A stretch of 32,000 nt of DNA from Parasynechococcus marenigrum WH 8102 (GCF_000195975.1 NC_005070.1:1080001-1112000), one strand, 5' to 3'. Counted from the first letter of the stretch, positions 8,059 through 21,854 are shown. Notes: generated from the letters alone by a model not told the origin. Numbers and translations are program-made.

Positions 8059-8811
8059 GTGGCCCGGGCCTCCTCCGCGCGACGCCATCCAAGCGGAGAC
8101 ATTCCCGTTGCCCGTCGGGCCGGAGCAGCCCGGCAGCGACGTCGTGGATCGGGTTCCCTTGTCGGCCTGGTCGCTGTTGTGGCGGTGGTTGCCGGCGGTG
8201 TAACGGTGCTGTTAGGGACCAACCGCACAGCACCGGTGCAACCGGCGCAGTCGTTGGGAATTGAGGGGTTCCGGCAGCGTCCCGACGAGGACGGGCGATT
8301 GTTGGGGCATTTCCCCTACGAAGAAGTTCCCCTTGATCAGCTCGTCAGCTTCGAGCCCGGCATTGTGCTTCACCTGGATGCAGCGAATGCTCTGGACGCG
8401 ATGTTGCAGGCCGGCCTGGCTGAGGGCGTCGATCTTCGTCTCTTAAGCGGTTATCGCTCCCTGGCGTTGCAGGAGTCGATCTTTTTCGACATCGCCTCGG
8501 AACGGAACCAGACGGCGGAGGAACGGGCGCAGGTTTCGGCACCACCCGGGTACTCCGAGCACAGCACTGGCTATGCGATCGATCTTGGTGATGGAGAGGC
8601 ACCCGAGACCAATCTTTCTCAGAGCTTTGAGCAGACCAGAGCTTTTCGCTGGCTTCAGGACAACGCTGCGCGCTACCACTTCATTCTTTCGTTTCCCAGG
8701 GGGAATCAGCAGGGGGTGATGTATGAGCCCTGGCATTGGCGCTTTCAAGGCACGGCCGAGGCATTGCGTCAGTTTGAGGCAGCCCGACGCTTCACCTCTC
8801 GACGCCTTTGA
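8059..8811 (+). CDS. D-alanyl-D-alanine carboxypeptidase, VanY/peptidase M15B family, with N-terminal membrane anchor
   Basis: It has the motifs SGYRSLALQ, SEHSTGYAIDL and EPWHWRF (the HxxxxxxD...H zinc site of VanY-type enzymes) and a TM segment LVGLVAVVAVVAGGVTVLL. The GTG start is uncertain. Confidence 0.75.
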   Translation: MARASSARRHPSGDIPVARRAGAARQRRRGSGSLVGLVAVVAVVAGGVTVLLGTNRTAPVQPAQSLGIEGFRQRPDEDGRLLGHFPYEEVPLDQLVSFEPGIVLHLDAANALDAMLQAGLAEGVDLRLLSGYRSLALQESIFFDIASERNQTAEERAQVSAPPGYSEHSTGYAIDLGDGEAPETNLSQSFEQTRAFRWLQDNAARYHFILSFPRGNQQGVMYEPWHWRFQGTAEALRQFEAARRFTSRRL

Positions 8812-11345
8812 CCATTCCTGAGCTGCTATCCCCAGCCGGTGACTGGGACTGCCTCAAGGCCGCCGTCGCCAACGGTGCCGATGCTGTTTATTTCGGTGTT
8901 GATGCCTTCAATGCCCGCCAGCGGGCTGAGAACTTCCGCATCGAAGAACTGGGGGAGGTGATGACCTGGCTGCATGAGCGCCAGGTACGGGGGTTCCTCA
9001 CCTTCAACGTGCTCGTGTTCAGCGATGAGCTGGAACGTGCTGCTGCGTTGCTGCTTGCGGCGCAGGCCGCCGGGGTGGATGCGCTGATCGTTCAGGACGT
9101 GGGTCTTTGTTGTCTGGCTCGAACCCTGGTGCCGGATCTTGCGCTGCATGGCTCCACGCAGATGTCGATCACCAGTGCCGCTGGTGTGGCGCAGGCGGCC
9201 GCATTGGGCTGTGAACGGGTCGTTTTGGCCCGGGAGCTTGCGCTGACGGATCTTGAGCGCTTGCAGGGGCAGTTGCAGGCCAGGCATCTGGCCATGCCCC
9301 TTGAAGTCTTCATTCACGGTGCTTTGTGTGTGGCTTATTCCGGTCAGTGCCTGACCAGTGAGTCCCTGGGGCAGCGCAGTGCCAACCGCGGTGAATGTGC
9401 TCAGGCCTGCCGGCTCCCCTATGAATTGATCGTCGATGGCGTTCCACGACCCCTGGGTGATCAGCGCTACCTGCTGTCGCCTCAGGATCTTTCGGCCTGG
9501 CCTGTGCTGCCCGAGCTGCAGCGGATCGGCATCGCCAGCCTCAAGATCGAAGGGCGGCTGAAGGACCCGAGCTACGTGGCGGCCGTCACGGATGCCTACC
9601 GCCGTGGTCTCGATCGGGGCCTCAACCCCGCGGAACAGGACGACCCCCAGCGCCAGTTGGAGCTTGCTTTTTCACGGGGGTTATCCACCGGATGGTTGCA
9701 AGGGATGAACCACCGCTGCCTGGTCCACGGCCGTTGGAGCAAGAAGCGCGGTCCATTGGTGGGGCAGCTCTTGCAGGTGGATCGCAGTGGCTGGCTGCAG
9801 ATCCGCAGCCGGGAGTCCTTGCGACCTGGCCAGGGCTTGGTGTTGGAACGACGGTCCACATCGCCTCTTCAGCCTCCGGAGGAGGTTGGGGGACGCGTGA
9901 TGGTGGTGGAACGGCTCGGCCGCGAGCGCCTGCGCCTGAAACTTGGCCCGGGTCGTCTCAACCTCCGCGATCTCACGGCCGGTGCGTCGGTCTGGCTCAC
10001 CAGTGATCCCTCCTGGGACAGCCACTGGCAGCGGGCTGCCCAGCGTCCGACTGCCAGCCAATCCATCGGGCTGCAGCTTCGGGTGCGGGGCCGTCTGGAG
10101 CAGCCACTGGTGCTGGAAACAATTGAGGGAGGAACGCGAATCTCCAGCCGCATGCCCTTGCAGGCGGCCCAGCAACGCGCTCTCGATCGCCATCGTCTGG
10201 AGGAGCAGCTGGGACGGCTCGGGGGCAGCGGCTGCTTTCTAGAACGGCTGGAACTGGACCTGGAAGGGGATCTGTTTCTGCCAGTGGCCGAGCTGAATCG
10301 GATGCGCCGGGAGCTCCTGGAGCAGCTACAGCAGCCACCAGCCCTCGCGTCATCCCAAGGGCCCCTGCAGAGCTCCGCGGTGGATGTGCCGTCCGTTTTG
10401 AGGCAGCTGTTGCCAGAGACCTCGCCCCAGTCCTCAACGGATCAGACCGGACTCGTCGTGCTGGTGCGGAGCCTGGCGCAGCTGGAGGCCCTGATTCCAC
10501 TCACCAACCTGCCGATTGCGTCCGTGGTGGCCGATCTGGAGCAGCCCCGTGATCTGAGGGAAGCGGTGGCCATCGGTCGTGGTCATTGGCCCGATGGGAT
10601 CTGGCTGGCGGGAGCCCGTATCACCCGGCCCAATGAGTCCTGGAGCCTGGAACCGTTGATCCGAGCCCGTCCGGACGGCTATGTGGTGCGCAATGCCGAT
10701 CAATTGGAACGCCTCACCCCCTTGGCTCCCTGCGTCGGTGACTTTTCTCTAAATACGGCCAACCCCCTCAGCGTCCGCTGGTATCTGGAGCACTGGGGGT
10801 TGGAGCGGGTGACGGCCAGCTACGACCTCAACCTGCAGCAGCTACTGGATCTGGCCGCTGGCGTAGACCCCTCACGCATCGAGGTGACCCTCCATCAACA
10901 CATGCCCCTGTTTCACATGGACCACTGCGTGTTCTGCGCCTTTCTCTCGGATGGTCATGACCACACCGATTGCGGTCGCCCTTGTGAACAACACACCGTC
11001 ACGCTCAGGGATCGCAGCGGCGTTGAGCATCCATTGCGGGCCGATCTCGGCTGTCGCAACACCCTGTTCAACGGCACGGCACAAACCGGTGTGGAGGGTC
11101 TGCCGGCACTGCTCGAGATCGGCATCCGTCAGGTCCGCCTCGAGCTGTTGGATGAGGATGCTGCGTCGACGCAGCGTCGGGTCAGGCTTTACGCCGATGC
11201 GCTTCTGGGCCGTCGTGCATCACGGGACGTGTGGAGTCAGGAACAGATCCATCACCAACTCGGCGTGACCCGCGGGAGCCTGAAAGTAACAACTGGGCGT
11301 AATGAGCCGAGCACCGTAGGGCGCAAGGGCAAACGCCAGTCGTAG
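8808..11345 (+). CDS. Peptidase U32 family protein (long, collagenase-like form)
   Basis: The N-terminus PELLSPAGDWDCLKAAVANGADAVYFGV and the blocks IHGALCVAYSGQC and ECAQACR are U32 hallmarks. The TTG start overlaps the upstream stop. Confidence 0.85.
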   Translation: MTIPELLSPAGDWDCLKAAVANGADAVYFGVDAFNARQRAENFRIEELGEVMTWLHERQVRGFLTFNVLVFSDELERAAALLLAAQAAGVDALIVQDVGLCCLARTLVPDLALHGSTQMSITSAAGVAQAAALGCERVVLARELALTDLERLQGQLQARHLAMPLEVFIHGALCVAYSGQCLTSESLGQRSANRGECAQACRLPYELIVDGVPRPLGDQRYLLSPQDLSAWPVLPELQRIGIASLKIEGRLKDPSYVAAVTDAYRRGLDRGLNPAEQDDPQRQLELAFSRGLSTGWLQGMNHRCLVHGRWSKKRGPLVGQLLQVDRSGWLQIRSRESLRPGQGLVLERRSTSPLQPPEEVGGRVMVVERLGRERLRLKLGPGRLNLRDLTAGASVWLTSDPSWDSHWQRAAQRPTASQSIGLQLRVRGRLEQPLVLETIEGGTRISSRMPLQAAQQRALDRHRLEEQLGRLGGSGCFLERLELDLEGDLFLPVAELNRMRRELLEQLQQPPALASSQGPLQSSAVDVPSVLRQLLPETSPQSSTDQTGLVVLVRSLAQLEALIPLTNLPIASVVADLEQPRDLREAVAIGRGHWPDGIWLAGARITRPNESWSLEPLIRARPDGYVVRNADQLERLTPLAPCVGDFSLNTANPLSVRWYLEHWGLERVTASYDLNLQQLLDLAAGVDPSRIEVTLHQHMPLFHMDHCVFCAFLSDGHDHTDCGRPCEQHTVTLRDRSGVEHPLRADLGCRNTLFNGTAQTGVEGLPALLEIGIRQVRLELLDEDAASTQRRVRLYADALLGRRASRDVWSQEQIHHQLGVTRGSLKVTTGRNEPSTVGRKGKRQS

Positions 11346-11375: not shown

Positions 11376-11591
11376 ATGTCCGACGGACTTCAGCTCATGG
11401 AACTTCAACTGGAACAACCACTGACATCGGTTCTCAGCGTCAAAGTCGCTTCTGACGTGGAGCCACGCCTTGATCACCACTGTGCCCGGCTTCAACCCAG
11501 CGGCACCCTGCCCCGCGCTGCCCTGGTGCGTGCCCTGCTTCGCAAGGGACTGGCCGAGCTGGACGAGCTGGAGGCGAGCGATGAGCGCTGA
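11376..11591 (+). CDS. Ribbon-helix-helix (CopG/Arc-like) DNA-binding protein
   Basis: It shows a beta-strand/helix/helix pattern (SVLSVKVASDVEPRLDHHCARL...LPRAALVRALLRKGLAEL) of the type seen in RHH repressors and antitoxins. Its stop overlaps the next ORF's start (ATGAGCGCTGA). Confidence 0.5.
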   Translation: MSDGLQLMELQLEQPLTSVLSVKVASDVEPRLDHHCARLQPSGTLPRAALVRALLRKGLAELDELEASDER

Positions 11592-11799
11592 TCTCTACAC
11601 CCGCCCGCTAAGAGCTTCTGTTCGTGAGCTTCTGCAGGAAGACAACATTGACATCGCGGAAGCGCTTTATTCCGACTGCGATTACCCGACAGCACTCAGC
11701 AATCTTGCTGAAGTTCGTGTTGCAGCGCAGAAGGTGGTATTTGAAGCTGATGCACTCATGTGCGCAGTGCTTGTTAAGGCGATAAGGGAAGACGATTGA
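11581..11799 (+). CDS. Hypothetical acidic 72-aa protein, translationally coupled to the upstream RHH gene
   Basis: An internal ATG of track ORF 11470..11799 overlaps the RHH stop by 11 nt. I recognise no motif. Confidence 0.4.
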   Translation: MSADLYTRPLRASVRELLQEDNIDIAEALYSDCDYPTALSNLAEVRVAAQKVVFEADALMCAVLVKAIREDD

Positions 11800-11832
11800 A
11801 TCATCATACAGGCGGGTAATTCTCGCCCATTG

Positions 11833-11860
11833 TTGACACTTTTAATTCGTCTCTCAAAAT
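11833..11860 (+). promoter_or_regulatory. Possible sigma70-type promoter ahead of the second RHH gene
   Basis: TTGACA (11833-11838), a 16-nt spacer and CAAAAT (11855-11860) lie in an AT-rich 89-nt gap. Confidence 0.25.
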
Positions 11861-11888
11861 GGACTTATAAGACAAAATTTTGGATCTT

Positions 11889-12059
11889 ATGAAATTCAAG
11901 CCGCGTTGCAAGTATCCGCACATTACGGCGACATATTTGTCTGACGCCCTACTTGCTGAAGTCAACAAATTCTGCGTTGACCACAACTGCAGCAAGTCAG
12001 AAGCGATTCGCCTCCTGATGCAGAACGGCCTCGCCGCAATGCTTCTTGATGACGGCTGA
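11889..12059 (+). CDS. Ribbon-helix-helix protein, 56 aa, below the ORF-track cutoff
   Basis: My translation is MKFKPRCKYPHITATYLSDALLAEVNKFCVDHNCSKSEAIRLLMQNGLAAMLLDDG. It has the same beta-strand/helix/helix layout as 11376..11591 (SKSEAIRLLMQNGL versus RAALVRALLRKGL). It displaces the implausible antisense ORF 11804..12166. Confidence 0.5.
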   Translation: MKFKPRCKYPHITATYLSDALLAEVNKFCVDHNCSKSEAIRLLMQNGLAAMLLDDG

Positions 12060-12122
12060 GAAAAATGAAGGGCCGCCCTGACAAGCCAACCCTTCACCAA
12101 TCCGACCAATGGAATTTTACCC

Positions 12123-12275
12123 ATGAGACGCTCTGATGCTGGATTTTCCGTCCTAATTGCTTCCATTTACAGCGAGATCGAGGACTGGATTGACAAGCAC
12201 CCTGATTGCTCACCGCACGCCTCTCTTGCGGTTGATCGGCTGTTGCTGCTTCTAACGACAATGGGACAGATGTGA
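12123..12275 (+). CDS. Hypothetical 50-aa protein coupled to the replicase gene
   Basis: My translation is MRRSDAGFSVLIASIYSEIEDWIDKHPDCSPHASLAVDRLLLLLTTMGQM. Its TGA (12273-12275) overlaps the replicase ATG (12275-12277) as TGATG. Confidence 0.4.
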   Translation: MRRSDAGFSVLIASIYSEIEDWIDKHPDCSPHASLAVDRLLLLLTTMGQM

Positions 12276-14341
12276 TGTCGTGGCGAGAGAAACTTCCTGA
12301 GCTTCAAGGCTTCGCTTTGTTGCCGTGTGGTGCAGGCGAAAAAGGCAAAGCACCGATTGATCAGGTAACTGGGAAGCACTTAAACAATTGGCCAGACGCC
12401 TCCTTCACACCGGACGACATCCTGGCGATGAACGGGAAGGTGAAATGCGTTGGAGTCAGGCCAGGACCTGATAGTGACAATCTGCTTTTCATTGACATCG
12501 ACGGAGCATCAGCGCTCACGTTCTGCCAGGAACACCGGTGTGATCTGAAAGATGCTGGCTGGATCATCCGGCGCACTACAGCAGACGATCGCCTGAAGGT
12601 CGCGTTTCAGATCAATGATCAGGAGCTGGAAGAAGAACTCTCCGACATAGGTAAGACAGTTCACAGCACAGGTGCAGGCGAGCAGCTTGAGCTGTTTTGG
12701 TCCACTGGTCAGTGCGTCGTTCTTGGTGATCACAAAACGTCGGGTGGGCAGTACGTCTGGGAAGGCAGCCCGGCCGAGATTGATTCACCGACAGAGCCCT
12801 GGCGTGAGCTGATCAAGCTGCTGATCCAGATCACTAGGCAGAGACAGAGCAGTAGTGGGCAGTCAGATAAAGGCGACTGGCGCGATTGCATTCCCTGCCC
12901 GATCTGCGAAAGAACTGAACCTGACTGCCGCATCAATGCCAATGGCGACATGGTGCTCTGCCATCACGGGACCCGCTGGTCACCACCCGAAATCAGTAAG
13001 GGCGAGACGGTGGAACGTGATGGCGTCACCTGGGCGATGGTCGGGGATGGCGTCAATGCGATCGGACCTTTCAGCACCTTCAAGATCCATGCACCGATCA
13101 CCCGCTCCATCCCAGCGCCTACCCAAGGAGTCCTGTCTGAACTGATCAGTGAGATCACGGATGGCTGGACAGAGAAGGGCCGACTCACACCCGCTAACGC
13201 CGGGATGTTGGAACAGCTCCTCAGCGACATTCCTGGGGACCGGATCCGCTTCAACCTCCTCACCATGGAGATTGAGATTGATGGCCAACGGCTCAGCAGC
13301 ACAGAAGCCGAGAACGCCTACATCCGTTTTCAGCAAAGGGGATACAACTGCAGCAAGCAATCAGCGCGGGATGCACTGCGCACATCAGCCGAACGTTTCA
13401 GCTTTCACCCAGTCCGCGACTACTTGAACGGCCTTGAAGCCGTCGTGCCACAAGACATCACAAGGTTGGCCTCCACGTTTCTGCGTCCTGCTGACAGCAG
13501 CGATGCGCCGACCATTTACGACCGCATGGTGTTCATCACCTTGATCGGTGCAGTGGCCAGAGTCATGGAGCCCGGCTGCAAGTTCGACACCTGCACCGTG
13601 CTGCAAGGGAAGCAAGGCATTCGGAAGACCAGCTTCTGGCAGGCGTTGTTCGGGGAATACTTCACGACCTTCCGGGGACGGCTGGATGACAAGGACGGCC
13701 TCCTGGTCGTTCACCAGAGCTGGGGACTGGAGCTGGGCGAACTGGACAACATCACCGGTAGTTACAGGGCCGGGCAGATCAAGAACTTCGTCACGACGCA
13801 GTGCGATCACTTCCGCGCTCCTTATGCCGCCAAGTCCGAATCAGCACCAAGGCCCAGCGTGTTTGTCGGCACCTGTAACCGGAATGACTTCTTGCACGAC
13901 GACACCGGGGAACGACGCTGGCTGATCATCCCCGTTGAGCTGGAAAGGCAGCAGAAAATCAGCACCCATCAGCTCAGCCAGATCAGAGATGGAATCTGGA
14001 AGGCCGCGCTGGACGCTTACAGGCAGGGTGCGCTGACGTATTTGAATGATGAAGATGAGCAGCTCATTGAAGAGCTGAACCGAGACTTCACCGCCGACAC
14101 CCTGACCGAAGGTGCTGTTCAGCAGTTCCTGGCTGAAAACTCAGGTCGCGATTACTACGACCCGCAACAGGTCTATCTGTACGTGTCCGACAAGCTGAAC
14201 GTGCCTCTGACCGACCGCCTGAAGAAGGACATCAAAGTGGACATGGCGCGGACAGGGTTGGACATGAAGCGTGGACCCGCGGACAAGTTTGGACAGAAAC
14301 GGCCTCGGAAGTTCTTCCGCACTGACCTGTCCAACCCATGA
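12275..14341 (+). CDS. Bifunctional replicase: N-terminal archaeo-eukaryotic PrimPol domain, Cys/His zinc motif, C-terminal VirE-family P-loop domain
   Basis: PrimPol-like blocks are LLPCGAGEKGKAPI, LLFIDIDG (metal-binding DxD) and LGDHKTSG. The zinc motif is CPICERTEPDCRINANGDMVLCHHG. The VirE-like region runs VLQGKQGIRKTSFWQALFG...LELGELD...IKNFVTTQCDHFRAPY...PRPSVFVGTCNRNDFLHDDTGERRW. Confidence 0.85.
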   Translation: MSWREKLPELQGFALLPCGAGEKGKAPIDQVTGKHLNNWPDASFTPDDILAMNGKVKCVGVRPGPDSDNLLFIDIDGASALTFCQEHRCDLKDAGWIIRRTTADDRLKVAFQINDQELEEELSDIGKTVHSTGAGEQLELFWSTGQCVVLGDHKTSGGQYVWEGSPAEIDSPTEPWRELIKLLIQITRQRQSSSGQSDKGDWRDCIPCPICERTEPDCRINANGDMVLCHHGTRWSPPEISKGETVERDGVTWAMVGDGVNAIGPFSTFKIHAPITRSIPAPTQGVLSELISEITDGWTEKGRLTPANAGMLEQLLSDIPGDRIRFNLLTMEIEIDGQRLSSTEAENAYIRFQQRGYNCSKQSARDALRTSAERFSFHPVRDYLNGLEAVVPQDITRLASTFLRPADSSDAPTIYDRMVFITLIGAVARVMEPGCKFDTCTVLQGKQGIRKTSFWQALFGEYFTTFRGRLDDKDGLLVVHQSWGLELGELDNITGSYRAGQIKNFVTTQCDHFRAPYAAKSESAPRPSVFVGTCNRNDFLHDDTGERRWLIIPVELERQQKISTHQLSQIRDGIWKAALDAYRQGALTYLNDEDEQLIEELNRDFTADTLTEGAVQQFLAENSGRDYYDPQQVYLYVSDKLNVPLTDRLKKDIKVDMARTGLDMKRGPADKFGQKRPRKFFRTDLSNP

Positions 14342-14508
14342 CCATGGACACGTCCAACGTTGTGGCCAAGGCAAACCCACTACTACGACTAGCTGTCCAA
14401 GCTGTCCATACCTATCTCTGAAGACTCGTAGGAGAAGAAAAAAAGGCGTAGAAACGCACTATTGGGAAGTCTTGGGAAAAAGGGTTGGACAGTATGGACA
14501 GGTGGACA
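14239..14508. repeat. Iteron array (GGACA / TGGACAG) flanking an A-rich tract; putative replication origin
   Basis: GGACA occurs at 14239, 14250, 14260, 14281, 14291, 14346, 14487, 14496 and 14504, with GGACC at 14273. The inverted form TGTCC occurs at 14328, 14394 and 14403, with GTCCA at 14352. An A7 run lies at 14438-14444. Confidence 0.6.
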
Positions 14509-14770
14509 GGGCTCACCTTTCAGCCGCCGAGCCTCCTCCTCCACGTGGAGGCAAGATTCACCAGGACGTGCTCCTTCGGGATGCGCTTCAGCCCACCGGC
14601 AACGTATGCCTCCCCGCAATCGCCTACGTCGCCGACGATCAGGATTGGGATGACTTTTCCTTTGTGTTGAACGGACATGGTGGCCGGTTTTTACTCCATT
14701 CAGACTTTGAACAAGAGCTACAGATACTGACCATTTGTCCTAGACCAAGGTCATATATAAGGAGGAACAG

Positions 14771-14872
14771 ATGTTCCACGAAGTTTTTCTCACCACCACC
14801 CTGTGCGTGGCCATCGTTGGCGCTATGGCTCTCTTCTATGGAGAGCTTCTGCTGCTGAAACACGCCCGTTAG
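14771..14872 (+). CDS. 33-aa hydrophobic peptide with a canonical Shine-Dalgarno site
   Basis: AAGGAGG (14759-14765) lies 5 nt before the ATG. My translation is MFHEVFLTTTLCVAIVGAMALFYGELLLLKHAR, a single TM helix with a basic tail. Confidence 0.35.
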   Translation: MFHEVFLTTTLCVAIVGAMALFYGELLLLKHAR

Positions 14873-15032
14873 TTAGTCAGCTCCTGATCTTTCACAGCAG
14901 CCCTGTACCAGTGAAGGCTTCAATAACTTCTGCCGCACAAAGTTGTTTGTTGTTCGGTTGAGGTTCGGTTTTCTCACTCACGCTGTACTTCCAAACCTGG
15001 CGATCGTTAGTGAGTCATTTCAATCAACCTAA

Positions 15033-15203
15033 ATGTCTACCGAAGTTCGCAACTGGGATCTCGTCGCGAAAGCGATGGAAGCAGCTGGTGCCACATCAAG
15101 CCAGATGTATTTCCGTGCCAAAGCATTGGCACAGGGCAAGCTCGATCCAATGCCCACAAGCTTCCCTGAAGCTCCTTACAGCATTTCCGCTGTAGCTGGC
15201 TAA
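15033..15203 (+). CDS. Hypothetical 56-aa protein, below the ORF-track cutoff
   Basis: My translation is MSTEVRNWDLVAKAMEAAGATSSQMYFRAKALAQGKLDPMPTSFPEAPYSISAVAG. Its composition is more protein-like than the overlapping track ORF 15010..15195. Confidence 0.35.
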   Translation: MSTEVRNWDLVAKAMEAAGATSSQMYFRAKALAQGKLDPMPTSFPEAPYSISAVAG

Positions 15204-15285
15204 TTTGGTTTTTTGGATCAGCTTATTGAAATTCAAACAGCTCTTGGTCTGACTAATCATCAGGCCTTTACCTACCATCTTTCTC

Positions 15286-15498
15286 ATGACAAACTACCAT
15301 CTTTCTGTAGAGCAGAGATTTCATCTCGAAGCTGCATTTCGCGAGATTGATGCCTGCGAAGATATAGAAAAGCTTCGCGCACTAACTAGACAAATAATAA
15401 CTGCACAGCAGAATGAGAAAGCCTTTGCTCGCGAGGCGATGTTGCAGCTCCGGAAAGAAATGGAGTTTGTTGCCTCAAAAAAATTCGGTTTTAACTGA
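15286..15498 (+). CDS. NblA-like (phycobilisome degradation adaptor-like) small helical protein, tentative
   Basis: It is 70 aa. LSVEQRFHLEAAFREID...IEKLRALTRQIITAQQNEKAFAREAM matches the NblA signature as I remember it: LSxEQxF, an amphipathic helix, a short turn, then a second helix. Confidence 0.45.
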   Translation: MTNYHLSVEQRFHLEAAFREIDACEDIEKLRALTRQIITAQQNEKAFAREAMLQLRKEMEFVASKKFGFN

Positions 15499-15879
15499 GG
15501 TTAAAGCTGAACTCTTCGTAGATTGGCTGGATCGCATAAGCCTTGAAAGAGGTCTTCAATGGTGGACTCTTTAATGGGTCCTTTCTGTGAAGTGCGTACG
15601 GGTAATTTCGGGCCGCCTTCATTATTTAGCGTCAGATAAGTTGGGCCTAAATTGGCTAGCACTATATATTAGCCAAGCTAATCAAATTAGTGGTCAACAG
15701 CAGACGATATCACGGTGGAATGGTCTGCGCATTGTTTCTCTCGTACGGCCTGCCAGTACCGCTTCGCCTGCGCACTACTCAGGGCATCGTCAGCAGGGTT
15801 AGGCCGCATTGGAAGTCATCATCAGGCTGATGAGAGGCGAATTGCTGAGGCATCAGTAGACAAAACTCATGCCCTTAAT

Positions 15880-16143: not shown

Positions 16144-17154
16144 ATGAACCACACCATCACCAAGAAGCGGCCATATAGCTTCAACGCACTGCTCAGCTCA
16201 CTCAGCTCACAAGTCCCAGACGAACAGGCCACTTGGGAGCAAAACTTGTCACTGCAGGCTGAGAAGTTCTACGGCCAGCACAGCATCCAGAAGAAGCAGG
16301 AGAACGCGGCATTCATCCCAACCCAAAGGATGCTGCGCGATCTGATCACAGGCACTGCCAGCAGCGGTGGTGACTTGGTTGCCACGTCGGTGCAGAAAGT
16401 CGCAGACAGCGTCCGGCCTGTGACCGTCTTGGAGCGTGCCGGTGTTGAGCGGATTGAAACCGGCGGAGAGAACCTGACCATCCCGCGCTTTGCCAAGGCC
16501 GATGCCGGATGGATTGCAGAAGGTGCTGACTACACCGCACTCACCACCACAAGCACCAGCGTGGATGCCAGCCCGAAGCTCGCCAGTGCCCGCCTGTCTT
16601 TCAGCCGCCGCCTGAAGGTGCTCGTCCCTGACGTTGAAGGGTCAGTTCTGCAGGAAGTCGGCCGTGCTGTTGCCGGACTGATCGAGAAGGGAGCGATTCA
16701 AGGCACTGGCAGCAACTCTCAACCGCTTGGCCTGCTCAACCTGCCTGATGCGCTCAGCCAGACCTTTGCCTCTGCAACTCCCACCAGCGATGAACTGGCA
16801 TCAATGCTGGAGAAGCTCGGTGATGCCGATGTGGACCTGAGCAAGGTGGTGTTCCTGATGCACCCGAGCACTGCCGCTGATCTGATGAAGACCCGCGTGG
16901 ATGCCAGCAGTGGCGCGTTGGTGCTGAGTGACCTGAAGATTCACGGCCTGCCGGTATTCATCACAAGCAATGTCACCGAGGACAAGGTGATCGCACTGGA
17001 TCCGAGTTACAGCCGTCTCGTCTACTTCGGCAGTGCGCAAGTCGTCGTGGATCCCTTCCGAGGAGCCGTCAGTGGTGTCACGCACACACAAATCCTGAAC
17101 GCAGCGGACTTCGTTTGCTCGCATCAAAGCTCCGTTGTGGTGGGTTCTGCTTAA
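16144..17154 (+). CDS. HK97-fold phage major capsid protein
   Basis: It is 336 aa. GAIQGTGSNSQPLGLLN and VVFLMHPSTAADLMK resemble the conserved G-x-G...P-x-G-hydrophobic and v-hydrophobic-x-P...L blocks of Phage_capsid family proteins. The C-terminus is glycine/valine-rich, and there is no long N-terminal delta/scaffold domain. Confidence 0.7.
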   Translation: MNHTITKKRPYSFNALLSSLSSQVPDEQATWEQNLSLQAEKFYGQHSIQKKQENAAFIPTQRMLRDLITGTASSGGDLVATSVQKVADSVRPVTVLERAGVERIETGGENLTIPRFAKADAGWIAEGADYTALTTTSTSVDASPKLASARLSFSRRLKVLVPDVEGSVLQEVGRAVAGLIEKGAIQGTGSNSQPLGLLNLPDALSQTFASATPTSDELASMLEKLGDADVDLSKVVFLMHPSTAADLMKTRVDASSGALVLSDLKIHGLPVFITSNVTEDKVIALDPSYSRLVYFGSAQVVVDPFRGAVSGVTHTQILNAADFVCSHQSSVVVGSA

Positions 17155-19789: not shown

Positions 19790-21688
19790 TTATGCCGTTT
19801 TGGCCCAGTCCACTGCATCAGCTCTTGCTCCTGCGCTTAGCCGGCCTGCCTCCTCTGCTGTGAATGTTGGAGATTTGATTCGTTTAGGAACGGGGATGCT
19901 TGATTCAAGTTTTTCTCGCTGCTCTGTTATCTGTTGTGGTGTGGCTCTTAGTTCCGCTAAGTCCTGAATAGTTTGGTCAATCACACAATCGTCTCCTCTG
20001 CGATAAAGGTAAACATCATCAATGGAGTTCAAAAGCTGCTTGTCAGTTACATCCGGTCGAATCTCACGCCACCAGTGATCGATTGGCAGATCTTTTAGTG
20101 TAATGCGGACACGAACCGGATTCGTGTTCATGAAAATAATCCGTGCTCCAAGTGTTTGCACCCACTGGTTGAACTTATTTCTTACTTCTGGGTCGGCACG
20201 ATTGGGCAATGACAAAAATTCTTCTAACTTGATCCGAATTTGTTCCTTCATGTCCGCGCCGTCAGGTAATGCTTGAAAAGCTTCAAGTTCAGCTCTTGTT
20301 TGTTTTGTTTTATCCTCGGCCGCGTTGGCTTGTTTCTTAGCCTTGATAGCCAGTTCTCCATAGAACACCAGAAGGTCCTTATCTGCATTCGTTTGAGTAA
20401 AGGCTTTGCTGGCATTGTCCTCAGCGGCTTTTGCTTGTGTCCTCAGCTCACCCGCAAGTCGCTCTTGCTCTAAGAGCCGATCCTGAAGATCTCGGATACG
20501 AGGCCCGGTGCCTGGGTTTTTAAAAAACCGCTCCCATCGCCTGTCCATGAAGGCCCTGAGCAAGAGCTCTTCGTCTACCTTCCATCGTTGTTTGCTTTTG
20601 ACAATGCAATCGCGGCCATCGTTCTGTGCGCTGCAGACAAGGTCTAAATACTTTCCGCTATGGCTGCTGGTATCCACCATCGGTGCACCGCAGCAACAGT
20701 AAGTCAGCCCTTTAAAGATATTGCGGCATGGCCCTAGTTCTCCGTTCTTTCTCGTTGTCCGACCTCTAGCTGGAGCCGAGTAACGACGCTTGACGTTCTC
20801 TCTTGCCAGTTCAACCGTTTTAGCGTCAACAATTACCGGGTAATAGCCCTGGCTGATTATCCCGTCTCCCCAGCACTTATGTCCCATCACTTGGTCGTTT
20901 CTCAGGACCTTGCAGACGTTTGCATTTCCCCAGGTACCACCAGTGGCAGTAGATAGTCCACGACGGTTTAGTTCTTCTGCGATCTGAACGCTGGACAGTC
21001 CCTGTTTGGCTGCCAACTCAAAGATCAACTGGATTGTTTCCGCTAGTGGAGCTGGGACAAAGTCGTTCTCACCTATTGCCAACCACTTTGGTGCATCTGA
21101 CAAGGACAGAAACTTTTTTCCAGAATTCAGATAAGAGTCACGTCGCTCTTGCCAAACGTTTTTGATTCTTCGGGATTTTTTGCTGCTCTCTGCGTTGGAC
21201 TCATTTTGAAGGACTTTCAGCATTACTGAGAGTCCTATATTTTCGTTGTAGAGCTCCTCTGTGACGATCGAGTCCTGGCTGACAATTCCAAGGGCAAGGT
21301 CCAGGTCCCAAAGCTCGTGGAGCATCCGCTCGCTAACGCTTGTGGTTCGCCTTGAGAAGCGGTCCCATTCCTCCACCACCAGCACCGAGCCTGCCGGGAT
21401 TAGGTCGTCGCGCCGAGCCTGGATGAACGCACCCAAGGCACCCTTGCTCTTGTGTGTGCCGTGAAAAGCCGAAAGCCCTTCATCTCGGATTGGATCGGCG
21501 TTGGGTATCAGGCCGTGGCGCTGGCAAAACGGCTCAAATGCGTCGTGCTGTCTTTTCAGTCCTACTCCATCCACTTGGGATTTCGTTGAAACCCGTTCGT
21601 AGCTGAACCCAATACGTGTCACTTCTTCAACCGACTTTTTAGTCCGGTCCTGTGCTGTCGATCCACTGTGCTGACTGGCGGCCGTCAT
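19790..21688 (-). CDS. Large serine recombinase (serine integrase)
   Basis: It is 632 aa. The resolvase catalytic motif is FSYERVSTKSQ with EEWDRFSR. The recombinase domain reads TWGNANVCKVLRNDQVMG, the zinc-ribbon cysteines CCCGAPM...LVCSAQNDGRDC, followed by a long coiled-coil-like region (LRTQAKAAEDNASKAF...AKKQANAAEDKTKQTRAELEAF). Confidence 0.9.
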   Translation of the reverse strand: MTAASQHSGSTAQDRTKKSVEEVTRIGFSYERVSTKSQVDGVGLKRQHDAFEPFCQRHGLIPNADPIRDEGLSAFHGTHKSKGALGAFIQARRDDLIPAGSVLVVEEWDRFSRRTTSVSERMLHELWDLDLALGIVSQDSIVTEELYNENIGLSVMLKVLQNESNAESSKKSRRIKNVWQERRDSYLNSGKKFLSLSDAPKWLAIGENDFVPAPLAETIQLIFELAAKQGLSSVQIAEELNRRGLSTATGGTWGNANVCKVLRNDQVMGHKCWGDGIISQGYYPVIVDAKTVELARENVKRRYSAPARGRTTRKNGELGPCRNIFKGLTYCCCGAPMVDTSSHSGKYLDLVCSAQNDGRDCIVKSKQRWKVDEELLLRAFMDRRWERFFKNPGTGPRIRDLQDRLLEQERLAGELRTQAKAAEDNASKAFTQTNADKDLLVFYGELAIKAKKQANAAEDKTKQTRAELEAFQALPDGADMKEQIRIKLEEFLSLPNRADPEVRNKFNQWVQTLGARIIFMNTNPVRVRITLKDLPIDHWWREIRPDVTDKQLLNSIDDVYLYRRGDDCVIDQTIQDLAELRATPQQITEQREKLESSIPVPKRIKSPTFTAEEAGRLSAGARADAVDWAKTA

Positions 21689-21755
21689 GGCTGAGAAGAC
21701 CAGTTACGGGCTGAAGTTACCTATTTACGCGCTGACGTGCCATGCAGGAGCCTGC

Positions 21756-21767
21756 GTGTCAAGGGTC
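21756..21767. repeat. Candidate right junction repeat GTGTCAAGGGTC
   Basis: It matches 11352-11363. It abuts an 18-nt near-palindrome, CATGCAGGAGCCTGCGTG, at 21741-21758. Confidence 0.3.
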
Positions 21768-21854
21768 CTGAACGCACCAGTCAAATCTCACGTTGAGATA
21801 ACCTTTCGCCCTGCGCCTTTGGGCGTTCTTCACAAATTCAAACGGTCAACCCGC

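Follow-up and report, generated by a model that had tools for sequence, protein, structure and literature searches.

The locus analysed here raises the question of where the replication of a satellite-like island would begin. We studied a 32,000-nt stretch of the Parasynechococcus marenigrum WH 8102 chromosome (GCF_000195975.1 NC_005070.1:1080001-1112000), hereafter the window, whose first letter is position 1 of all coordinates unless another locus is named. Within it, a low-GC segment of about 10.3 kb (GC 0.44-0.58), extending from about 11.35 to 21.85 kb, stands out from the GC-rich surroundings (0.58-0.64) of a marine Synechococcus chromosome. This island contains several small open reading frames (ORFs), a replicase gene (rep), an HK97-type capsid gene and the gene of a large serine recombinase; as read from its sequence, it is a satellite of the tycheposon kind that resembles the phage-inducible chromosomal islands (PICIs). 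The initial annotation had proposed an iteron origin made of GGACA repeats, situated at the 3' end of rep and immediately beyond it. This proposal is supported by the homology of the initiator, by the conservation of the layout in related loci and by the presence of the same layout in plasmid and phage replicons. We propose that the repeat field is probably the vegetative, Rep-dependent replication origin of the island, of the Rep/iteron type found in the Staphylococcus aureus pathogenicity islands (SaPIs), and assign this reading a probability of about 0.8. An origin beside a SaPI-Rep-like gene is what a specialist would expect.

The repeated unit has GGACA as its core and TGGACAG as its full form, with tTGGACAg as a fuller version. 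Along the field we find in turn a forward array inside rep, a reverse copy, the stop codon, a dyad, a reverse pair, a spacer and a forward triplet:

14227-14295, plus strand: forward array inside the rep ORF, seven copies (GGACA at 14227, 14239, 14250, 14260, 14281 and 14291; GGACC, within TGGACC, at 14273).
14327-14333, minus strand: reverse iteron CTGTCCA, 8 nt ahead of the stop codon.
14339-14341, plus strand: stop codon of rep.
14345-14356, no strand: dyad TGGACACGTCCA, 4 nt past the stop codon, an exact copy and a one-mismatch copy (the right arm) placed head to head.
14393-14399 and 14402-14408, minus strand: left core pair, AGCTGTCCA twice at an interval of 9 nt (read on this strand as TGGACAG).
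14409-14485, no strand: spacer of 77 nt with an A7 run at 14438-14444, GC 0.43, the presumed melting region.
14486-14492, 14495-14501 and 14503-14509, plus strand: right core triplet of TGGACAG, with spacings of 9 and 8 nt.

Eight copies are thus found in the last 115 nt of the rep ORF, those of the forward array being spaced by 8-13 nt, and seven copies follow within 168 nt of the stop codon when both halves of the dyad are counted. The two core arrays face away from the spacer, and spacing inside each of them is about 9 nt. The positions that the initial annotation had given for the forward and reverse copies, the dyad, the triplet and the A7 run were all correct on recount, and its tally of about 14 exact or one-mismatch copies in about 270 bp corresponds to 12 exact and 2 one-mismatch copies in 14239-14508. 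Two copies could be added, the forward one at 14227 and a reverse one at 14184, and the segment 14184-14508 holds 14 exact copies. The copies inside rep occupy all three reading frames (KDI, VDM, RTG, LDM, ADK, FGQ). A peptide repeat was therefore rejected as their cause: they are a feature of the DNA.

Such a density of copies is not expected by chance. GGACA occurs 62 times on the two strands of the window, which is 0.52 per 270 nt and agrees with the expectation of about 0.5 on which the initial annotation had relied. The Poisson probability of the cluster at 14184-14508 is 4e-16. In second-order Markov simulations (n=100), the largest GGACA cluster per 330 nt averaged 3.7 copies with a maximum of 6, against the 14 observed. 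An unbiased scan of all words gave the same answer: the field is the top local cluster of the window at word lengths of 5, 6 and 7, with log10 P values of -15.4, -14.7 and -13.4, respectively. Elsewhere in the window the full TGGACAG is found isolated at 13166, 20541 and 20992, and neither the unit scan nor the all-word scan found a second tight iteron cluster in the island. A loose enrichment of GGACA is seen inside the recombinase gene (20107-21104; 10 copies on both strands in about 1 kb versus about 1.9 expected); it does not form a tight array and includes two of the isolated full units, those at 20541 and 20992.

The core of the field is an imperfect palindrome (14393-14501), whose two arms of 34 nt (14393-14426 and 14468-14501) are 76% complementary and separated by 41 nt. 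The arms correspond to the core arrays and their inner flanks, and the palindrome renders the core origin dyad-symmetric. Folded as single-stranded DNA, the segment 14385-14512 has a z-score of -5.0 relative to shuffled sequences. Between the arrays, the spacer has a GC content of 0.43, where rep has 0.57 and the window as a whole 0.58. Its 40-mers have a stability of -51 to -53 kcal/mol, whereas the island averages -56.2 and the flanks range from -57 to -62; the spacer is a local stability minimum.

The protein that would act on these repeats is encoded by rep, whose relevant parts are the following:

12275-14341, plus strand: rep gene, coding for 688 aa when read from its ATG at 12275; a GTG one codon earlier, at 12272, opens the mechanical ORF.
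14108-14320, plus strand: codons of the predicted winged helix, residues 613-683 in the 689-aa numbering.
14213-14251, plus strand: helix 3, the presumed recognition helix in the model, residues 648-660.
14258-14272 and 14306-14320, plus strand: strands of the wing in the model.

The 688-aa product starting at the ATG is the gene call on record in public assemblies. Rep is organized as an N-terminal primase-polymerase (PrimPol) domain, a Zn-ribbon region, a helicase similar to SaPI Rep1 (VapE-like) and a predicted C-terminal winged helix. The Pfam search of Rep returned VapE-like_dom (E 7e-60) and, below threshold, Prim-Pol (E 8.5e-4), and these two alone; D5_N, PriCT and Toprim were not found. 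Among PDB sequences the sole real match is 7PDS, described in its depositors' paper as the complex of SaPI1 Rep1 with DNA, with an E-value of 3.5e-20 by phmmer and of 5.6e-37 with a profile of 20 family sequences. An AlphaFold model of Rep (predicted local distance difference test score, pLDDT, of 83) was submitted to Foldseek and again retrieved 7pds, chains A-F, as the top matches (E about 3e-18, template modelling score of 0.68 on the target, about 457 aligned columns), the alignment spanning essentially the entire Rep1 chain. The poxvirus D5/E5, NrS-1 and African swine fever virus PrimPol-helicases ranked after it. Sequence and modelled fold together show that the Rep helicase is a homologue of SaPI1 Rep1.

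In this model, about the last 75 residues adopt the H-b-H-H-b-wing-b topology of a winged helix, with pLDDT values mostly between 80 and 95; DSSP assigns helices to residues 613-622, 631-642 and 648-660, a bridge to 628-629 and strands to 663-667 and 679-683. This domain can be aligned across the Rep family and is predicted to give origin recognition. The codons of helix 3 and the wing (14213-14320) coincide with the iterons inside the ORF, the forward array thus overlying the DNA that encodes the presumed recognition helix and wing.

In order to determine how widely the arrangement is shared, we gathered the loci of Rep relatives from representative genomes (9 loci), metagenomes, IMG/VR and exact-protein look-ups, and located the strongest 6-mer cluster in each of 33 non-redundant loci taken over their entire length. 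This cluster lies at the 3' end of rep in 23 of the 33 loci versus 3.9 expected, a number that none of 200,000 simulations reached, and all 21 clusters with log10 P < -9 are found there. We also defined a strict signature, namely two reverse copies, a gap of 45-115 nt and two forward copies of one 5-mer. It follows rep in 9 of 28 loci, for a control rate of 0.016 per 440 nt measured over 195 kb; with 6-mers only 5 of the 28 loci show it, and the whole-locus test of the strongest cluster is the more robust statistic. The pattern that recurs at the end of rep has two or three reverse copies and, beyond a gap of 58-130 nt, two to four forward ones, at a spacing of about 9 nt. Relatives' spacers have a similar length and contain A/T runs.

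The initial annotation had proposed to check whether homologous islands keep the repeats while the flanking sequence drifts, and this is what is seen in relatives whose Rep is 54%, 41% and about 30% identical. In the 54%-identity lineages, the stop codon is followed first by a dyad (TTGGACCGGTCCA and TTGGACCGTCCA in loci L011 and L019) and a reverse pair and then, across a gap of about 71-77 nt in which an A/T run occurs, by a forward pair. One of these lineages (P0003) has TGGACC as its unit, another (P0002) a mix of TGGACC and TGGACA. In the TGGACC lineage, represented by L011 (units GGTTGGACC / GTTGGACC), C replaces A in the intergenic copies and in those at the homologous codons inside the ORF alike, a concerted change. 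TGGACA and the same layout are kept in the 41% lineage and in rep-only lineages at 50-52% identity. More distant relatives carry other units at the same place: GGGACAC, GTGCACAG, GTGGCCAC, GGTGGACAG, GGGCAC(T/C) and GGGAAC, as well as GGTGTAGCGG, GTTGATC, ATACATT, TGTTACAG, ATTGCCG and GTTACA. The layout is thus conserved down to about 30% Rep identity, while both the unit and the surrounding sequence vary. The fact that the units co-vary with Rep and not with the host fits a co-evolving binder encoded by the element rather than a conserved host protein.

In some relatives (L035, L036, L038, L032, L033 and probably the plasmid pAL20115c, L081), the rep ORF reads through the entire iteron field, for instance at 3980-4377 of L036 and 3566-3859 of L081, so that the origin ends up in the protein as a low-complexity linker. 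The units concerned are GTGGCCAC, GTGGACAG, GGGCAC and TGAGTA, and the read-through ORFs of L036 and L038 end in a conserved tail (..KPRPFMRS.H..PGNDD..).

The strongest indirect support comes from replicons. By tblastn searches of plasmid and phage records, VapE-type relatives were found on small cyanobacterial plasmids and in the Synechococcus phage S-LBS1. The Microcystis plasmid p2-NIES88 is an autonomous circle of 3117 bp whose sole genes are a VapE-family gene and an 89-aa ORF. Past the rep stop codon, it carries copies of CCCTACCT as a reverse pair at +155/+164 and a forward triplet at +296/+305/+314, on either side of a gap of about 130 nt with a GC content of 0.30. This is a 2 + 3 layout with 9-nt spacing, as in the core of the window, and rep and the field make up nearly all of the plasmid. 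Since p2-NIES88 is too small for much else to serve as its origin, the arrangement itself is likely to be the origin. In S-LBS1, CCTAACCT is repeated at 9-nt intervals after the PrimPol gene, three times in reverse and four times in forward orientation (3 + 4).

In close relatives of the island, rep and the field behave as a module. Ten contigs carrying one Rep variant, from the 90%-identity cluster of the window Rep, do not differ from the window in the final 140 nt of rep and remain nearly identical to it through the field up to about 14645; beyond this point, 9 of the 10 diverge completely. Rep, the field and about 130 nt beyond it thus move as a unit among mosaic islands. Across 11 contigs from different samples with Rep identities of at least 98%, each of the 16 iteron cores is unchanged from contig to contig; the rep gene of one of them, L010, differs at 3.5% of sites.

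Many short-read metagenome contigs of relatives (L010, L014, L022, L025, L037 and L073) end in the field or no more than about 100 nt past it: L010 within the forward triplet, L014 and L022 at 49 and 81 nt past the stop codon, and L037 inside a field of GTGGCC. These ends probably reflect assembly-graph breakage among mosaic variants that share the rep-ori module. Another relative, L053 (ENA ERZ25068665 ctg132065, marked circular), is a long-read contig whose genes repeat with a period of about 17.8 kb and which looks circular or concatemeric. Its cargo includes a tyrosine integrase, a 200-aa protein upstream of a VapE-only Rep, and a tape-measure protein; this Rep is 52% identical to the helicase part of the window Rep and its gene is followed by the same GGACAG field. 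Phage-like elements and a capsid-only island are thus served by one and the same rep-ori module.

A working scheme can be proposed on the model of the SaPIs. The island would have to be excised by its serine recombinase, probably upon a helper-phage trigger, before it replicates. One Rep hexamer would assemble on each array, its winged-helix domains binding the iterons. Needing no separate loader, the two hexamers would melt the spacer and, as helicases of 3'-5' polarity, encircle single strands. The first primers would be made by the N-terminal PrimPol domain, and a host polymerase would elongate them. The copies inside the ORF and in the dyad may be auxiliary Rep-binding sites which raise the local occupancy by Rep, and they may feed back on rep expression.

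Several observations weigh against reading the field as an origin, or limit its parts. The functional side of the claim is deduced from homology and conservation. Microdiversity is uninformative: the 5 variable sites in 14202-14509 all avoid the iteron cores, but this would occur by chance with p of about 0.23, and we did not use it as evidence. Ten of the 33 related loci, mostly from a freshwater group at 35-37% identity, lack a strong cluster after rep; the rule is therefore common and not universal, or else their iterons are too degenerate for exact-word counts. Some of the TGGAC copies inside the ORF could be favoured by the G-W-T codons that relatives conserve in the wing, where the window encodes G-L-D. 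As to the spacer, it is just about 1 SD (standard deviation) less stable than the island mean, and the stretch 14690-14760 is less stable than the spacer. Of the unwinding element that the initial annotation had seen in the A-rich tract, the AT-richness is borne out, whereas the effect on stability is small and a less stable stretch lies nearby; a melting function of the spacer is plausible but weakly supported, and is the weakest link of the reading.

A further claim concerns the iterons inside the ORF. That they are functional Rep-binding sites, the DNA of the recognition helix and wing (14213-14320) thereby doubling as part of the origin, is a tentative idea that we consider doubtful. If it were true, the overlap would force the DNA-binding domain of Rep and its target to change together, and it could provide a built-in feedback between occupancy of the origin and transcription of rep. 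A 2.3-kb cassette of rep and field, together with its lineage variants, would then offer ready-made, mutually compatible replicons for marine picocyanobacteria.

Four other explanations of the field were considered; even taken together, they are unlikely. The repeats could be operators of Rep or of another regulator, with a mainly transcriptional role in the autoregulation or termination of rep or in the control of downstream genes. The initiators of iteron plasmids often autoregulate through their own iterons, the copies overlap the 3' end of rep ahead of the next genes, and relatives have a conserved non-coding block after the field. However, the field occupies the 3' end of rep and not its promoter, and upstream of rep the motif is not clustered but occurs as single copies at 11377 and 12264. 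A scan of 14100-15000 revealed neither a sigma-70-like promoter nor an intrinsic terminator. Moreover, outward-facing arrays around an AT-richer gap are the layout of a SaPI origin (PMC9371898), and a 3.1-kb plasmid without any other candidate origin shows it as well. We regard a mainly transcriptional role as improbable. A decaying or coincidental repeat, whether the remnant origin of a defective island or in part a by-product of winged-helix codons, would account for the coincidence of TGGAC copies at the wing with the G-W-T codons conserved in relatives. It would hardly account for a chance probability of about 1e-15, for copies spread over three reading frames, for 16 of 16 cores being identical across 11 contigs despite the divergence of the L010 rep, or for a layout kept down to about 30% Rep identity, and the Rep, recombinase and capsid ORFs of the island are all intact. 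This explanation is very unlikely.

The field could instead be a packaging (pac/cos) or recombination site, read by a terminase or a recombinase. The island has a capsid gene and needs packaging, and the contigs that end in or just after the field in many relatives could in principle reveal physical DNA ends. Yet ends at short repeats of co-occurring variants are an expected assembly artefact, no terminase was detected among the island ORFs scanned, and the same field follows rep in the 3.1-kb plasmid, which has no capsid gene. The serine recombinase gene stands 5.3 kb away at the edge of the island, where attachment (att) sites belong, and the island is integrated. A pac/cos or recombination site is accordingly held to be highly improbable. 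Lastly, the repeats might be DnaA boxes or sites for another host initiator, in which case the island would borrow the chromosomal initiation machinery. A reverse copy in L051 and L052, TTGTCCAC, matches the DnaA box at 7 of 9 positions, the consensus of this box being TTATCCACA. In contrast, DnaA-box matches in the window are at chance level (TTWTNCACA with one mismatch: one match in the field, and 27 window-wide versus 25.8 expected), and the units shift with the Rep lineage to words unrelated to DnaA (GGGAAC, GTTACA, CCCTACCT). Host-initiator sites are close to negligible as an explanation, and a Rep-dependent origin is the reading we retain.

The chromosomal setting of the island and its other genes were also examined. 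On the left it is flanked by a U32 peptidase gene (8808-11345) and on the right by typA (called from 21855). Proteins of the housekeeping flanks and of the island are also present in many marine metagenome contigs, and ERZ23491716 and SRR10229895 are metagenomes in which the island occurs. The 90%-identity clusters of its flanking TypA and GlyS include proteins labelled at source as Synechococcus, Cyanobium or Cyanobacteriota. The other annotated features of the island are as follows:

14520-14678, minus strand: 52-aa ORF after the origin, a gene call in public assemblies.
14772-14873, plus strand: 33-aa ORF encoding a very hydrophobic peptide, MFHEVFLTTTLCVAIVGAMALFYGELLLLKHAR, with a strong AAGGAGG site in front.
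15010-15203 and 15286-15498, plus strand: two small ORFs of 56-70 aa.
16144-17154: gene of the HK97-type major head (capsid) protein, Pfam E 2e-19, PHROG 617 E 1e-32.
19790-21688, minus strand: large serine recombinase ORF with Resolvase, Recombinase and Zn_ribbon_recom domains, at the right edge of the island, adjoining typA at the low-GC boundary.

Among the island ORFs covered by the domain and PHROG scans, no terminase gene was detected, the PHROG scan of the 70-aa ORF (15286-15498) gave no match, and Rfam, searched with permissive thresholds over 11-22 kb, gave none either. No tRNA or tmRNA that could serve as an att site is present within the 32-kb window. Between the start of the recombinase gene and the position from which typA is called, there is a gap of 166 nt (21689-21854), in which the right attachment site of the island is expected. 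The typA ORF obtained mechanically opens at 21687 and has 57 codons in excess at its 5' end.

Upstream of rep, public gene calls place three small genes (71, 72 and 56 aa) at 11376-12059 on the plus strand, in the same orientation as rep, and they disfavour a mechanical 120-aa ORF on the minus strand (11804-12166). Relatives likewise carry DUF4326 and small ORFs upstream of rep and co-oriented with it. No regulator was recognized there when the 120-aa ORF was searched against Pfam and PHROGs and the 71-aa ORF against PHROGs only. Downstream, a conserved non-coding block (GGGTCCTTyCTG...GTrGGTrATTTCGrrCC...TAGsGTCA) is found at 15577-15640 of the window, at 3897-3960 of L011, and in L020 and L021. 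In relatives of 54% identity, about 50 nt separate it from the right iteron pair, and in the window it is found about 1.07 kb further downstream, so that 14510-15575 looks like an insertion between the origin and the block. RNAalifold gave no convincing structure for this block, and it may serve the next gene as a promoter or regulatory region.

Marine phage satellites, tycheposons among them, are abundant and are drivers of gene flow in picocyanobacteria. Narrowing the origin candidate to a 300-nt stretch makes the replication of marine satellite elements testable, and provides a rule with which to search for others: two outward-facing arrays of a short word, spaced by about 9 nt, at the end of a VapE/Rep gene. 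The rule predicts specificity groups based on the unit (TGGACA, TGGACC, GTGGCCAC), which could govern incompatibility or the cross-talk between satellites and helper phages. To our knowledge, self-replicating vectors for marine Synechococcus and Prochlorococcus are scarce, and such modules are candidate small replicons for both.

We finally compared the field with known systems, some of which the initial annotation had invoked when it likened iterons at or just after an initiator gene to those of PICIs, P4 and plasmids. The likeness to PICIs holds, through the SaPI layout, whereas those to P4 and to classical iteron plasmids do not hold in detail. Classical iteron plasmids (Rep_3 / pi / TrfA) have repeats of 17-22 bp in one direction beside a DNA unwinding element (DUE), an initiator with two winged-helix domains (WH1-WH2) and DnaA boxes. 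In the window, by contrast, the units are of 5-7 nt, the arrays are inverted, the initiator is a helicase and DnaA-box matches remain at chance level; an origin of this class was rejected on these grounds and for want of a Rep_3-type initiator. The alpha protein of P4 is a satellite-encoded primase-helicase whose C-terminal winged helix binds short iterons, and P4 has two iteron clusters (ori and crr) of octamer units, kilobases apart. The window Rep differs in having no D5_N, PriCT or Toprim domain and the island in having no second tight iteron cluster, and a P4-type replicon was likewise rejected.

The pRN1 plasmid of Sulfolobus offers a partial parallel. Its ORF904 combines PrimPol, helicase and winged helix, and its origin lies no more than about 166 bp downstream of the gene as a dyad-symmetric element of about 100 nt (PMC4234260), to be compared with the imperfect palindrome of about 109 nt at the core of the window. 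However, pRN1 is an archaeal plasmid, and its origin is described as a stem-loop, the integrity of which is important, rather than as a short-iteron array. Closer to the SaPI family, the SCCmec (staphylococcal cassette chromosome mec) protein Cch2 is a self-loading helicase related to SaPI Rep, and its C-terminal domain binds 5-nt iterons (AAGTG) directly downstream of its gene (PMC7581432). Short iterons directly downstream of a related helicase gene are thus common to both systems, whereas Cch2 has three direct repeats only, with no two-array layout around a spacer, belongs to another helicase subfamily (Primase_Cterm/D5_N) and works with a primase that is a separate protein.

The best match is provided by the SaPIs. 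SaPI Reps are helicases that load themselves and recognise penta- or hexanucleotide iterons by means of a C-terminal winged helix; 6-12 of these iterons lie directly downstream of the rep ORF around an AT-rich centre, with at least two on each side in opposite directions, and two hexamers are probably loaded, one per side (PMC9371898). The same description of the origin is given in PMC7581432. The likeness to SaPI1 (Rep1), SaPIbov1 (Rep) and SaPI5 (PriRep5) extends to the homologous initiator helicase with its C-terminal winged helix, to iterons of 5-7 nt, to an origin that begins at the end of the rep ORF, to an AT-richer centre flanked on either side by two or more iterons, in opposite orientations, to a primase fused to Rep, as in SaPI5, and to the small integrated island of phage-satellite type. 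All the features that characterize a SaPI origin at the sequence level are present here, namely homology of the Rep helicase, a predicted winged helix, the number and position of the iterons, and inverted arrays around an AT-richer centre. The differences are that the host is a marine cyanobacterium, that the primase domain is a PrimPol of the archaeo-eukaryotic primase (AEP) type and that the integrase is a large serine recombinase. In addition, the field of the window starts within the ORF, about half of the copies lying inside it over the winged-helix codons, and its centre is only modestly AT-rich.

As to the element itself, the island shares with tycheposons its small size, a site-specific integrase at its edge, a primase/helicase replication module and a major capsid gene (bioRxiv 10.1101/2020.12.28.424599). 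It differs in its location, as it adjoins typA in a Synechococcus and does not occupy one of the tRNA-adjacent hotspots of Prochlorococcus. The preprint admits a minority of tycheposons with large serine recombinases, and neither it (Hackl et al., bioRxiv 10.1101/2020.12.28.424599) nor the paper on marine satellites (virion-encapsidated integrative mobile elements, VEIMEs) mentions an element origin or iterons; integrases and replicases are described in both. The mechanism proposed here is not new, as it mirrors that of SaPI origins; the origin is an addition to what is described for elements of the tycheposon type.

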